DNA of 62,803 nucleotides, from IMG/VR virus record IMGVR_UViG_3300030106_006483, positions 1-62,803 of that record. One strand, 5' to 3'. Under the pieces are notes generated by a model. That model did no database searches. It was not told the DNA's origin and saw nothing but the letters and a program-made list of their open reading frames with translations. Source of the DNA: a virus (lineage: Duplodnaviria; Caudoviricetes). The translations under genes and the position numbers were made by a program. Shown piece after piece: positions 22,066 through 35,991 of the stretch (the stretch's first letter is position 1; each line of letters opens with the position of its first letter).

Positions 22066-22986
22066 ATGGCAATATCACGACAACAACTAGTTAAAGAACT
22101 AGAGCCAGGTTTGAACGCCCTGTTCGGCTTGGAATATAAAAGATATGATTCAGAGCATGAAGAAATTTATGCAAAAGAATCTTCTGACAGAGCTTTTGAA
22201 GAAGAAGTAATGTTATCTGGCTTTGCTAATGCATATGTTAAACCTGAGGGTTCAGCGGTTGCATTTGACAACGCACAAGAAACATTTACTGCAAGATATA
22301 CTAATGAAACAGTAGCTCTTGCATTCGCTTTAACTGAAGAAGCTATGGAAGACAACCTGTATGACAGACTTGCGTCTCGTTATACAAAAGCACTAGCAAG
22401 ATCAATGGCTAACGCTAAACAGATCAAGGCAGCAACACCTTTGAACCAAGGACTACCGTCAGTAGCGGCAGCTTCTTCGTTTCAATCAGGTGACAATGTT
22501 AACTTGTTCAACACAGCGCACCCAACGATTGCTGGTTCTTTCCAAAACACGTTAACAACTCAGGCAGACCTTAACGAAACTTCATTGGAGCAAGCTTTAA
22601 TAGACATTGCAGCAATGACAGATGAGAGAGGGTTAAAAATTGCAGCTAGAGGAATGAAAATGATCGTTCCACCTGAAAATCAATTTAATTCTGACAGATT
22701 GTTAAAATCTCAAGGAAGAACTGGTACTGCAGATAATGATATCAATGCAATCAAAAACATGGGAATGATCCCTGAAGGTTACAGAGTAAATCATTATTTA
22801 ACAGATACTGATTCTTGGTATATCATCACTGATGTGCCGAATGGGATGAAGTACTTTGAAAGATTACCTATCCAAACTAAAATGGAAGGTGATTTCTCAA
22901 CTGGAAACGTGAGATACAAAGCTAGAGAAAGATACGTCTTCGGATGTTCTGACCCTAGAGGTATCTTCGGAGTTGAAGGTAACTAA
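22066..22986 (+). CDS. major capsid protein
   Basis: MAISRQQLVKELEPGLNALFG; strong RBS; followed by terminator. Confidence 0.88.
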   Translation: MAISRQQLVKELEPGLNALFGLEYKRYDSEHEEIYAKESSDRAFEEEVMLSGFANAYVKPEGSAVAFDNAQETFTARYTNETVALAFALTEEAMEDNLYDRLASRYTKALARSMANAKQIKAATPLNQGLPSVAAASSFQSGDNVNLFNTAHPTIAGSFQNTLTTQADLNETSLEQALIDIAAMTDERGLKIAARGMKMIVPPENQFNSDRLLKSQGRTGTADNDINAIKNMGMIPEGYRVNHYLTDTDSWYIITDVPNGMKYFERLPIQTKMEGDFSTGNVRYKARERYVFGCSDPRGIFGVEGN

Positions 22987-22996
22987 TCAATAAATT

Positions 22997-23026
22997 AAGA
23001 GGCCGCCTAAAAACGGCCTCTTTCTT
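22997..23026 (+). terminator. intrinsic terminator after capsid gene
   Basis: AAGAGGCCG-loop-CGGCCTCTT-TCTT. Confidence 0.8.
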
Positions 23027-23045
23027 AATTATAACAGGTGTGTTC

Positions 23046-23300
23046 ATGAAAAAATTCCTAGTACAGATATGGGCTTACGATTATCACGCTAAATTTGAAG
23101 TTTTAGCGGAAGATAGCGTTGATTCTATTGAACAATCAATCCTTGACAAAATAGGAGAAAAGACTATAAAATGGGAATACATGGGGGAGAATGTTTATTC
23201 TACCCAAGTTAACAGAATAACTTATGAGGAAGTTATCTATGATACAAGACCTATACAAACACAAAAGGTCCTTGGAGTTGAGGTGGCAACTAGAGTATGA
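23046..23300 (+). CDS. hypothetical protein
   Basis: ATG 23046 after AGGTG. Confidence 0.6.
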   Translation: MKKFLVQIWAYDYHAKFEVLAEDSVDSIEQSILDKIGEKTIKWEYMGENVYSTQVNRITYEEVIYDTRPIQTQKVLGVEVATRV

Positions 23301-23448
23301 ACAGTTTGGTAAATATACTCTGGATATGGTCAGAATTGATGACAAAATTAAAGAAGTCATCACTGAGATCAAACTCGAAGAAAATAAGATTGCTGATAGA
23401 CAAAATGCAATCGAACAGGCTGCTGCCCAAGTTTCTGTGGCTACTTAA
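23239..23448 (+). CDS. small coiled-coil protein
   Basis: ATG 23239 after GAGG; helical pattern. Confidence 0.6.
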   Translation: MIQDLYKHKRSLELRWQLEYEQFGKYTLDMVRIDDKIKEVITEIKLEENKIADRQNAIEQAAAQVSVAT

Positions 23449-23492
23449 ATAAACGCCACATCGCTGAAATCGTACATTTCCTGTAGGATCTC

Positions 23493-23521
23493 TTGCACTC
23501 TACTCAAATCTAATATATAAA
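23493..23521 (+). promoter_or_regulatory. sigma70-type promoter
   Basis: TTGCAC-17-TATAAA. Confidence 0.5.
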
Positions 23522-23527
23522 TTACTC

Positions 23528-23600
23528 ACTATACATTTTAAAACGATATATAGACGCGTATAGTCGACGGCCTAGAGACTATATATCAGAAACTAGGAGG
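23528..23600 (+). ncRNA. candidate double-pseudoknot cis-regulatory RNA
   Basis: P1 23528-34/23558-64, P2 23545-53/23579-87, P3 23571-75/23593-97 overlapping SD AGGAGG. Confidence 0.55.
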
Positions 23601-23608
23601 ATAAAATT

Positions 23609-24616
23609 ATGGCAAGAACAAACTTTTCTGGACCTATCAATGAAGGTAATGTCCAGCAAAACAATCAAAGTAACACGACAACTTACAAACCAGGGTTAAC
23701 AAGAAACGTAGGGTTTGTAGTAGCAGGTCAATCTTTTTGGCTTGATCACAATGCGTTTACTTTAACAGCAGCAGGCGTTGCTAACGTAGCAGCGGCAGCA
23801 CAACCAACAGATGGTAATATGGTTTTAACTGGTGATGCAGCTACAATCGGAACTACTATTATGCCGTCAATTAACGGTTATGGTGGAGCAGCACAAGTTA
23901 CTATAACTTCTGCAGCAGACGATAGTGGAAACGAAATGGTGTTAACAGGAACTGATATTTACGGTTTACCGCAAACAGAAACTGTTCAACCTATGGCTAA
24001 TGCTGGAGTAGTACAATCTACTAAAACTTTTGCATCTATTTCAAGTGCACAAGTTAACTTAACATCTAGTGGAGCGGCTCAACAACCAGCAGGTAACGTT
24101 TCAATTGGTGTTTTAGCAACAGATAAAATGACGGTGCTTTGTCAATCAACTTACAATGGTTTTCCAGGAGTTGGTTTTGGTACTGCAGGTTATCAACCAA
24201 GTGGAACTTATGGGGAAACTGTCCAAAGTAACTTAGCAAATAATATTGTAATTCCAAAAAATTCAAGAATTATGAATATTTCGTTAATCACTGTTGAAGA
24301 CCCAGGTCAAACAGCAGCGTTTGAATTTGGAGCTAACATCGGTCAATCAAGCACTACTGATACACACGACCTAAACTACTTTACAACTACATCAGCTAGT
24401 TTAAGAGCAGTTGGTCAGTATAATTTAGGTGGAGCTGGTGGAGCTGGTGGTTTAGTTCCTGATCATGCTAATTGTTACAACACTTCATATGGAGACACTA
24501 ATCCATTTGCAGCTGATAAATTAGTAACAGTTACATGTGACTTTGGTGCAGCTATCACTGCAGGTGAGTGGATGATTAATTTCACTTACTTACAAGGTGT
24601 TAACGGTACTAACTAA
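23609..24616 (+). CDS. structural protein (head fibre/decoration-like)
   Basis: MARTNFSGP N-terminus; Thr/Ala/Gly-rich. Confidence 0.6.
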   Translation: MARTNFSGPINEGNVQQNNQSNTTTYKPGLTRNVGFVVAGQSFWLDHNAFTLTAAGVANVAAAAQPTDGNMVLTGDAATIGTTIMPSINGYGGAAQVTITSAADDSGNEMVLTGTDIYGLPQTETVQPMANAGVVQSTKTFASISSAQVNLTSSGAAQQPAGNVSIGVLATDKMTVLCQSTYNGFPGVGFGTAGYQPSGTYGETVQSNLANNIVIPKNSRIMNISLITVEDPGQTAAFEFGANIGQSSTTDTHDLNYFTTTSASLRAVGQYNLGGAGGAGGLVPDHANCYNTSYGDTNPFAADKLVTVTCDFGAAITAGEWMINFTYLQGVNGTN

Positions 24617-24625
24617 TAATTAATT

Positions 24626-24651
24626 AAAGTGCTCCTTCGGGAGCACTTTTT
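24626..24651 (+). terminator. intrinsic terminator with UUCG loop
   Basis: AAAGTGCTCC-TTCG-GGAGCACTTTTT. Confidence 0.85.
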
Positions 24652-35361: not shown

Positions 35362-35991
35362 ATGAACTTAAGTAATTATTATTGGTATTTTCAATCAGCC
35401 ATTCCTCATCGCATCTGTGATGATATTGTACGCTATGGAAAACAATTACAAGATGGTTTAGCTACTACAGGTGGTTATGGCGATGTTAAAAAATTAAACC
35501 AATCTCAAATTAAAGATTTAAAAAAGAAAAGAGATTCAAATATAGTTTGGATGTCTGATCGGTGGATTTATAAAGAAATACAACCTTATATTCATCAAGC
35601 TAATCAATCTGCAGGATGGAATTTTCAATGGGATTTTTCAGAGTCTTGTCAATTCACTAAATATAATAAAGGTCAATATTACGATTGGCATTGTGATGGA
35701 TGGGATAGACCGTATCAAAGACAACAAGGGGATCCTTCAAATGGTAAAATAAGAAAGCTATCCGTAACTGTTACATTATCGGATCCTAAAGAATATAAAG
35801 GTGGAGAATTAGAATTTGATTTTAGAAATTTAGATCCCGATAAAAAACCTAATGTACATAAATGCAAAGAAATATTACCTAAAGGATCTTTAGTAGTGTT
35901 TCCTGGCTTTGTGTGGCATAGAGTATGCCCAGTTAAAAAAGGATCAAGACATAGTTTAGTAATATGGAATTTAGGATGGCCTTATAAATGA
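35362..35991 (+). CDS. 2OG-Fe(II) oxygenase, PKHD/prolyl-hydroxylase-like
   Basis: WHCD, RKLS, YKGGEL, HRVCPV..G.RHSLV.W. Confidence 0.88.
   Translation: MNLSNYYWYFQSAIPHRICDDIVRYGKQLQDGLATTGGYGDVKKLNQSQIKDLKKKRDSNIVWMSDRWIYKEIQPYIHQANQSAGWNFQWDFSESCQFTKYNKGQYYDWHCDGWDRPYQRQQGDPSNGKIRKLSVTVTLSDPKEYKGGELEFDFRNLDPDKKPNVHKCKEILPKGSLVVFPGFVWHRVCPVKKGSRHSLVIWNLGWPYK

Follow-up and report, generated by a model that had tools for sequence, protein, structure and literature searches.

The question raised by the locus described here is what stands between a promoter and the start codon of a gene whose product differs from one phage to the next. The locus, about positions 23528 to 23608 (plus strand), belongs to IMG/VR record IMGVR_UViG_3300030106_006483, a complete 62.8-kb virus record (62,803 nucleotides (nt), referred to below as the window) to which, among named phages, Pelagibacter phage HTVC027P and phage 023Pt_psg01 are most closely related. 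It lies between a small open reading frame (ORF), which ends at 23448, and a 335-amino-acid (aa) ORF, which starts at 23609, both downstream of the major capsid gene. Judged from the comparison of related sequences, the segment is a genuine cis-acting RNA, unusual in its fold, widely distributed and not yet catalogued, and its function is inferred. The explanation that we favour, and that we consider as a whole to be rather probable, is that the element is the 5' leader of the messenger RNA (mRNA) transcribed from a hypervariable gene, located behind the capsid gene, of SAR11 phages that resemble HTVC023P and HTVC027P; its likely role would be post-transcriptional control, in which the Shine-Dalgarno (SD) sequence is partly masked and the 5' end is buried.

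The original prediction, which was made from the letters of the window alone, described a TTGCAC-17-TATAAA promoter followed by three interleaved pairings, the last of which overlaps an AGGAGG SD sequence. Every item of this description is present in the window, where the promoter, the three helices (P1 to P3, lengths in base pairs (bp)) and the successive parts of the leader are as follows.

23493-23521, plus strand: sigma-70-like promoter, with -35 box TTGCAC at 23493-98, a 17-nt spacer and -10 box TATAAA at 23516-21.
23528-34 (ACTATAC) with 23558-64 (GTATAGT), plus strand: helix P1, 7 bp.
23545-53 (GATATATAG) with 23579-87 (CTATATATC), plus strand: helix P2, 9 bp.
23571-75 (CCTAG) with 23593-97 (CTAGG), plus strand: helix P3, 5 bp.
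23528-23534, plus strand: 5' arm of P1, ACUAUAC, which starts at the predicted first transcribed base (+1).
23535-23544, plus strand: linker L1, A/U-rich and variable in length and sequence in the alignments introduced below (A1, A2 and A4), with indels that are not multiples of three.
23545-23553, plus strand: 5' arm of P2, GAUAUAUAG; G23553 is the G of the first of three GAC triplets and pairs with C23579.
23558-23564, plus strand: 3' arm of P1, GUAUAGU, which covaries.
23571-23575, plus strand: 5' arm of P3, CCUAG, which covaries.
23579-23587, plus strand: 3' arm of P2, CUAUAUAUC, which covaries.
23588-23592, plus strand: A-rich linker AGAAA, 4-8 nt in relatives.
23593-23597, plus strand: 3' arm of P3, CUAGG, which overlaps the SD sequence by 3 nt.
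23595-23600, plus strand: SD sequence AGGAGG, 8 nt before the ATG at 23609.

The arms follow one another in the order a b a' c b' c', that of a kissing-hairpin double pseudoknot, in which three helices cross mutually and, as seen below, each is kept by compensatory change. A crossing 7/9/5-bp set of the same topology appeared in none of 20,000 dinucleotide-preserving shuffles of 23528-23600, while a relaxed 5/6/4 version appeared in 252 of 20,000. The nested-only minimum free energy of 23528-23625 is ordinary (z = -0.29), because the helices cross and are thus invisible to nested folding.

The manner in which the leader varies among relatives bears directly on the fold, for which support would appear to be about as strong as comparative analysis can give. 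Three MAFFT alignments were used: A1, of 83 distinct leaders; A2, in which the addition of 46 new distinct leaders brought the number to 129; and A4, which comprises the window and 32 further distinct leaders (33 rows) fetched via the capsid protein of the divergent relative L195 (59 of the 80 loci were searched, contigs already in the set were excluded and 37 matches were obtained). In A1, 97.8% of cells pair, compared with 87.6% for shuffled partners, 17-38% for slid partners and 38.8% for a control in which the structure string was placed one column off. The three helices pair in 97.9% of the cells of A2, against 86.8% for shuffled partners (none of 500 shuffles reached the observed value) and 17-38% for slid partners; compensatory changes occur at five of the seven pairs of P1, at all nine of P2 and at two of the five of P3, a total of 16 of 21, and P2 is represented by 51 distinct arm pairs among the 129 leaders. 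The full 24-pair model is paired in 98.0% of cells in A2 (shuffled 87.9%, 0/500; slid 20-36%; 19/24 pairs compensatory) and in 95.8% in A4 (shuffled 80.3%, 0/500; 16/24 compensatory), where P1, P2 and P3 show compensatory change at 4/7, 9/9 and 2/5 pairs, respectively. The A4 figure for P1, 91.7%, is conservative because a few divergent P1 arms were misplaced by MAFFT. P3 is 100% paired in A4, with C-G replaced by G-C in five rows and G-C by A-U in four; the corresponding changes in A2 are G-C to A-U in five sequences and C-G to G-C in one. Thus the covariation in homologs that the original prediction had put forward as its own check was found, in 16 of the 21 helix pairs of A2 and again in A4 and, together with the shuffling of the window, it argues that a structured leader RNA with three real crossing helices follows the promoter. 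Among the more divergent helices are the following.

L195 clade: P1 CUAGG/CCUAG together with P3 CGUAG/CUACG.
L362 and L367: P1 CCAAG/CUUGG.
L350: P1 CUGAG/CUCAG.
L375: P1 ACUAUAG/CUAUAGU.
L403: P1 ACCAUAC/GUAUGGU.

In the L195 clade P1 has taken the usual sequence of P3 and P3 has changed too, so that cross-pairing between the two helices is avoided. Such a joint change would be expected if P1 and P3 both form in one molecule. A further pair of relatives, L177 and L189, share the same two P2 arms (TGATGTAG/CTACATTG) and have CCUAA on the 5' side of P3; in L177 this is compensated by UUAGG, and L189 keeps CUAGG with an A.C mismatch. L189 looks like an intermediate between the two halves of a compensatory change.

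One component of the original prediction fared differently. It had proposed that an alternative helix, TATAGTC (23559-65) with GACTATA (23577-83), competes with P1 and P2. This helix is present in the window and 90.5% of its cells pair in A2, a value matched by 500 of 500 shuffles; it displays no compensatory change in A2 and is broken at two positions in 28-35 of the 129 leaders. The pairing that is conserved has the character of RNA. Inside the helices G.U occupies 62 cells and A.C only 3, an asymmetry that points to plus-strand RNA and misfits both duplex DNA and the opposite strand. Stop codons in helices, along with the non-triplet indels, show that there is no conserved coding frame; indeed the stop-to-stop frames of the leader are short or unconserved. 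No terminator-like site, as would be required of a transcription attenuator, was found within 23528-23608.

The bases between the helices are nearly invariant, and the rare changes that occur there are paired. The recurrence of GAC at 23553, 23566 and 23577, which had been read originally as a pseudo-threefold feature, is explained by covarying pairs that place the three GACs at the corners of a three-way junction. Three closing pairs, G23553-C23579, C23555-G23566 and C23568-G23577, join three strands, and G23556-C23565 is stacked alongside.

23554-23557, plus strand: junction strand ACGC; A23554 is unpaired, C23555 pairs with G23566, G23556 pairs with C23565 and C23557 is a one-base bridge.
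23565-23570, plus strand: junction strand CGACGG; C23565 and G23566 pair back to G23556 and C23555, A23567 is unpaired and C23568 pairs with G23577.
23576-23578, plus strand: junction strand AGA; G23577 pairs with C23568 and A23578 is unpaired.

Within every GAC the G pairs to one neighbouring GAC and the C to the other, so the pseudo-threefold remark is borne out. The first arm of the junction is the 9-bp P2. The second is the two-pair stem C55-G66/G56-C65, the loop of which (C57 and the 3' arm of P1) pairs with the first seven bases of the leader, while the third is C68-G77, whose loop (GG, the 5' arm of P3 and an A) pairs with the strand bearing the first half of the SD sequence. Three of the four junction pairs covary. 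Thus in A2 the G23553-C23579 pair is GC in 124 leaders, AU in four and UA in one; C23568-G23577 is CG in 126 and UA in three (L002, L098 and the distant L173), and is therefore 100% paired; and G23556-C23565 is GC in 120, CG in five and UA in one, the A4 counts for this last pair being 26 GC and 7 UA. Each junction strand contributes one unpaired adenine, A23554 (128/129 in A2), A23567 (129/129) and A23578 (129/129), and all three are invariant in A4.

The element is kept across hundreds of relatives of abundant SAR11 viruses. A search with no more than the promoter motif yields at least 120 IMG/VR contigs, and the leader is also found in at least 118 metagenome contigs. An initial 123 records yielded 118 with enough downstream sequence and 93 distinct versions, nearly all of which share one leader; the exceptions are L048, which has an unrelated context, L111, and five that have a leader of a second type, L023, L038, L074, L075 and L097. 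A covariance model built from P2 alone (R1) finds a single copy in the window at 103 bits, the runner-up scoring 23 bits, and reaches at least 35 bits in 54 of 80 loci fetched via the capsid protein of the window, many of the R1-negative loci stopping before the leader region. The leader also occurs on contigs of Pelagibacteraceae and alphaproteobacterial single-cell assemblies (L206, a 59.5-kb contig, L216 and L204), which is consistent with SAR11 cells caught during infection. It was seen, in addition, in bins labelled as unrelated phyla, which probably represent mis-binned phage DNA. The relevant sections of PMC9599517 describe HTVC023P-type phages, HTVC027P included, as among the most abundant SAR11 phages in nature and report that the type includes vSAG 37-F6.

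The promoter has the properties of a sigma-70-type site, in that two hexamers separated by 17+/-1 nt are kept while the spacer drifts. Both the hexamers and their spacing persist in the distant relatives L173, L188, L189 and L195 although the spacer has diverged; in such relatives TTGC(A/T)C and TATATT are found in the same register, with a 16-17 nt gap and a differing spacer. Among 127 leaders the -10 box is TATAAA in 68, TATATT in 13, TATAAT in 12 and TATACT in 9, with other variants in the remainder. The promoter motif is single in the window at up to three mismatches, and an automatic promoter scan skips the 23493-23521 site because its -10 box ends in A. It should be emphasized that for L003-L122 the -35 box and spacer formed part of the fetching pattern; the sets fetched with the major capsid protein are the independent ones. 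In L360 and L375 TATAAT stands 6 nt before P1 and no recognisable -35 box is seen; in both the leader directly follows the capsid terminator and the small ORFs that precede it in the window are absent.

The -10 box is separated from P1 by 6 nt in 107 of the 127 leaders, and the bases at -1/+1 are CA in 80, TA in 41 and AA in 6, giving pyrimidine-A in 121. This promoter geometry makes A23528 the predicted first transcribed base; in HTVC027P the first A of the P1 arm would correspond to about base 35,511 of MN698241.1. With A23528 as +1, G23556 would occupy the '-1' place opposite C23565, and the triphosphate end would thus lie at a nick in a stacked helix; the 5' end of the transcript would have no more than about one unpaired base. 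Metatranscriptome contigs from four RNA runs give no ground for a conclusion on the start: none covers 23492-23532, those upstream end near 23470-23484 and eight contigs (three runs) begin at 23550-23562. Contig ends are no measure of RNA ends, and the breaks near the leader are accounted for by graph branching at the conserved core. In the main text of the HTVC027P transcriptome paper (PMC12753301) the words 'promoter', 'gp62' and 'capsid' do not occur.

At its other end the fold runs into the ribosome-binding site of a gene that is as variable as the leader is constant.

23609-24616, plus strand: downstream gene (335 aa), a member of a hypervariable slot; no Pfam or PHROG family; predicted all-beta.
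24626-24651, plus strand: GC-rich hairpin immediately behind the gene, with UUCG as its loop and a run of T; it probably serves as a terminator or stabilises the 3' end.

With the exception of L189, every A2 leader pairs P3 with the SD strand (128 of 129), as do all 33 rows of A4, and covariation of P3 is seen in at least three genomic contexts (L173, L360/L375 and the L004 group). The SD sequence is always within 4 nt of the knot or P3; in most leaders the overlap is three of the six SD bases, with CUAGG holding the first half of the SD. The products of the slot (104 complete ORFs) range from 16 to 346 aa and comprise many dissimilar bodies behind a common N-terminal peptide of about 10 residues, of the form MA-x-TTF-x-GP, a pattern that suggests swappable modules docked via a common anchor. 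No Pfam family was found for the slot proteins; some relatives belong to a PHROG of unknown function, and the homologues are all unnamed. The AlphaFold2 model of the protein in the window is all-beta with a mean predicted local distance difference test score of 60, and Foldseek returned weak likenesses to beta-sandwich or jelly-roll folds (query-normalised template-modelling score up to 0.45). That 23609-24616 is a 'structural gene', as it had been called, would follow from its position. The original suggestion that a trimeric fibre protein made from this gene feeds back on the leader is unlikely, since so variable a protein cannot be the partner of a near-invariant RNA core; in autogenous control operator and protein would be conserved together, and here they are not. 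Of 102 relatives examined, 40 had their tails inspected for a GC hairpin comparable to that of the window, and nearly all of these have one behind the variable gene, mostly with UUCG; a strict T-run rule is satisfied in 11 of the 102. Promoter, knot, variable gene and 3' hairpin thus resemble a self-contained cassette.

From this arrangement we infer that the leader acts in cis and post-transcriptionally, on translation and stability. It may limit or gate binding of the 30S ribosomal subunit, because part of the SD sequence is paired and the remainder abuts a compact knot. The knot may, in addition, shield the 5' end from 5'-end-dependent decay, the triphosphate end being placed at the nick of a quasi-continuous helix beside G23556, with C23557 bridging the 7-bp P1. 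RNase J, an enzyme of interest in this context, is encoded (above the curated cut-off) in two of the three single-cell assemblies with such phage contigs, both labelled Pelagibacteraceae. The near-invariant junction with its three unpaired adenines could form a tertiary core or a site at which a conserved factor docks, a factor other than the variable downstream protein. If this role is correct, the design, in which the 5' end and the ribosome-binding site are tied up in a single knot, would make a compact, portable module for expression control. The leader would govern a single hypervariable slot beside the capsid gene, and it therefore bears on how swappable virion parts are expressed.

Several observations weigh against the proposal that the leader controls translation and stability through one compact fold. 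P1 with P3 and P2 alone differ little in energy across the 129 leaders (-7.9 +/- 0.7 and -7.0 +/- 1.6 kcal/mol, respectively), so a two-state switch stays a rival, and covariation cannot separate one compact fold from two alternating states. The C23555-G23566 pair is near-fixed (CG in 127, with a lone UA in the ambiguously aligned, rearranged row L044). A plain 5' hairpin suffices for end protection, and the invariant junction hints at a more specific job. P3 does overlap the SD, as the original prediction had it, by 3 nt in most leaders, but the predicted occlusion is not universal: the overlap falls to 1 nt in the L195 clade and to zero in L027, L044 and L176, which have a separate SD further downstream. 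Occlusion itself may thus not be the selected feature. Finally, some relatives have no leader or a different one. In L111 the conserved promoter leads straight into an SD sequence and start codon with no structured leader, and the leader is therefore dispensable in some genomes; other relatives have a second class of leader, which is described below.

The absence of a known RNA family, which the original prediction could not assign, was confirmed by searching Rfam 15. At gathering thresholds the whole window gave no matches, seven divergent loci searched at E<=1 gave nothing on the leader, and the best score over the leader when 23000-24000 was searched at E<=10 was Clostridium-PBP at 20.2 bits, compared with a gathering score of 94.4. 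Literature on structured RNA in marine phages, on pelagiphage pseudoknots and on exonuclease-resistant RNAs (xrRNAs) in phages returned no description of the element. Several superficial resemblances were tried and dropped: a T7-type promoter core, of which only CACTATA is conserved, and this covaries as RNA; guanidine-II ACGR loops, which have no closing stems and no Rfam match; hammerhead and hepatitis delta virus-like cores, whose motifs are absent; and the packaging RNA of phi29.

By design the closest systems are the S4 and S15 leaders, the gene 32 pseudoknot, pseudoknot riboswitches, 5' stem-loop stabilisers and xrRNAs, and the leader belongs to none of them. The double pseudoknot of the Escherichia coli alpha operon and the rpsO pseudoknot bind known ribosomal proteins (S4 and S15, respectively) and control translation initiation. 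Both have crossing helices around the ribosome-binding site, as has the leader, which differs in its architecture, in having no known repressor and in matching no Rfam model. The gene 32 leader of T4 and T2 forms an H-type pseudoknot at the 5' end of a phage mRNA, through which a conserved product exerts autogenous translational control. Its geometry, a one-base loop across a 7-bp helix, is that proposed here for C23557, whereas the leader has a hypervariable product and three crossing helices with a junction. SAM-II, SAM-V, preQ1-II and preQ1-III are pseudoknot riboswitches that mask the SD; like them the leader is small and pseudoknotted, has the SD strand as its last helix and contains a conserved unpaired core, but it displays a different topology, no link to a ligand-pathway gene and no Rfam match. 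The ompA leader has a 5'-terminal stem-loop whose paired first bases protect the RNA from 5'-end-dependent decay in E. coli. The first transcribed bases are likewise paired here if the predicted start is used, although a knotted fold, an invariant junction and contact with the SD set the element apart from simple hairpins of the ompA type. PMC5760640 describes xrRNAs as built on a three-way junction from which one pseudoknot reaches the 5' end and another a downstream strand, and as able to block bacterial RNase J1 in vitro. A three-way junction with two pseudoknots, one involving the 5' end and the other joining a hairpin loop to a downstream strand, is common to the flavivirus xrRNA and the leader. 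In contrast to the xrRNA, which lies in a 3' untranslated region and stops an enzyme coming from upstream, the leader starts at the predicted 5' end and runs into the SD; its 5' bases form 7 bp with a hairpin loop rather than pairing with two junction bases; and there is neither sequence likeness nor an Rfam match.

It could be argued that the leader is a true switch, riboswitch or protein operator, in which a conserved protein of phage or host, an ion or a small ligand binds to the junction with its three adenines and thereby either shifts the RNA between a P2-only state with the SD free and a P1-plus-P3 state with the SD masked, or locks all three helices. Such a device would explain why the junction bases are near-invariant while every helix varies, and it fits the nearly isoenergetic alternative states, the involvement of the SD in P3 and the presence of one copy per genome in a regulatory position. 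We nevertheless hold it to be doubtful, as the leader is tied to a hypervariable phage gene only and not to a metabolic or transport gene, the downstream protein varies too much to act as the ligand and no known aptamer family was matched. Furthermore, no covarying alternative helix was found that would free the SD, the one proposed having failed. A second view, which we regard as similarly doubtful, is that the element is mainly an mRNA stabiliser. The knot would bury the 5' triphosphate or block a 5'-to-3' exonuclease in the manner of an xrRNA, the 3' hairpin would guard the other end and contact with the SD would be incidental. In its favour, the predicted +1 coincides with the start of P1 in nearly all leaders, the covarying pair G56-C65 is stacked next to the terminal base, the mostly UUCG hairpin follows the variable gene, RNase J is encoded in host single-cell assemblies and xrRNAs stop such an enzyme in vitro. 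These points have to be set against P3, which is conserved, covaries and is always at or within 4 nt of the SD, and against the junction, which end protection alone does not need to be invariant; a ring or threading is not inferable from sequence, and no Rfam family scored, those of xrRNAs included. It is conceivable, though speculative, that the leader represents a new class of phage-encoded sensor or shield RNA, either a riboswitch-like junction with an adenine pocket or a counterpart of xrRNAs in the bacterial world; either would be a first for viruses of SAR11. A sensor would receive in its pocket a conserved phage factor or a signal of the state of the host and would time the synthesis of a swappable virion protein, while a shield would defeat RNase J or RNase E at the 5' end of the mRNA. 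Orphan RNA motifs with a complex fold and much covariation have repeatedly proved to be new riboswitches, ribozymes or protein-recruiting RNAs.

Two further explanations depart more widely from control at the level of translation and stability. A compact structured RNA that directly follows a promoter and leads a series of genes on the same strand might modify RNA polymerase, as does put of phage HK022, a processive antitermination RNA, or might be a small self-cleaving ribozyme. The fold is fused to an SD sequence and start codon, though, the gene that it heads has its own terminator-like hairpin, and no ribozyme or put-like Rfam model was matched, which together make this very improbable. 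Less credible still is a DNA-level element, in which the inverted repeats would work as double-stranded DNA, either as operator sites of the promoter or as a hot spot at which recombination swaps the variable gene. Both the unusual conservation of promoter and spacer and the position of the conserved block at the border of a hypervariable cassette count in its favour. Against this disfavoured view, compensatory changes preserve pairing and not sequence, G.U is tolerated and A.C is not, an asymmetry that is meaningless in duplex DNA, and crossing helices are needless for protein-bound palindromes.

The second class of leader stands behind the same promoter in L023, L038, L074, L075, L146 and at least 120 IMG/VR contigs (L217-L331), where it heads a different gene family with the N-terminus MTTHF... 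In these leaders the loop of a covarying hairpin (GGUUAUCUU/AAGAUAACU) is paired to a 5' arm of sequence ACUAAGA; next comes a small GGCGC/GCGCU hairpin, which carries the SD sequence. The hairpin helix (P2') covaries; the core of the loop pairing (P1') is invariant, its edge pairs often mismatch and a shorter form lacks P1'. The class-2 pseudoknot is offered as a lead only. That the SD of this class, too, lies within a local hairpin downstream of a pseudoknot-like 5' fold was counted in favour of translational control.

Upstream of the leader the window contains the following features, which are given as context.

22066-22986, plus strand: major capsid gene.
22997-23022, plus strand: terminator-like hairpin of the capsid gene.
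23437-23459, plus strand: hairpin GUGGC/GCCAC with a 13-nt loop, in which the small ORF has its stop codon (23446-48).

Between the capsid terminator and the promoter (23040-23448) are two small overlapping ORFs (23040-23300 and 23224/23326-23448). The DNA of this interval is 69-73% identical to HTVC027P and 023Pt_psg01, whereas the gene after the leader is unalignable at the DNA level. The hairpin at 23437-23459 is not followed by a U-run; in 95 distinct upstream regions its arms are GTAGC/GCTAC in 83, GTGGC/GCCAC in 6, a compensatory change, and GTAGC/GCTAT in 4. A strong promoter-like site, TTGACA-18-TAAAAT, lies at 23143-23172.

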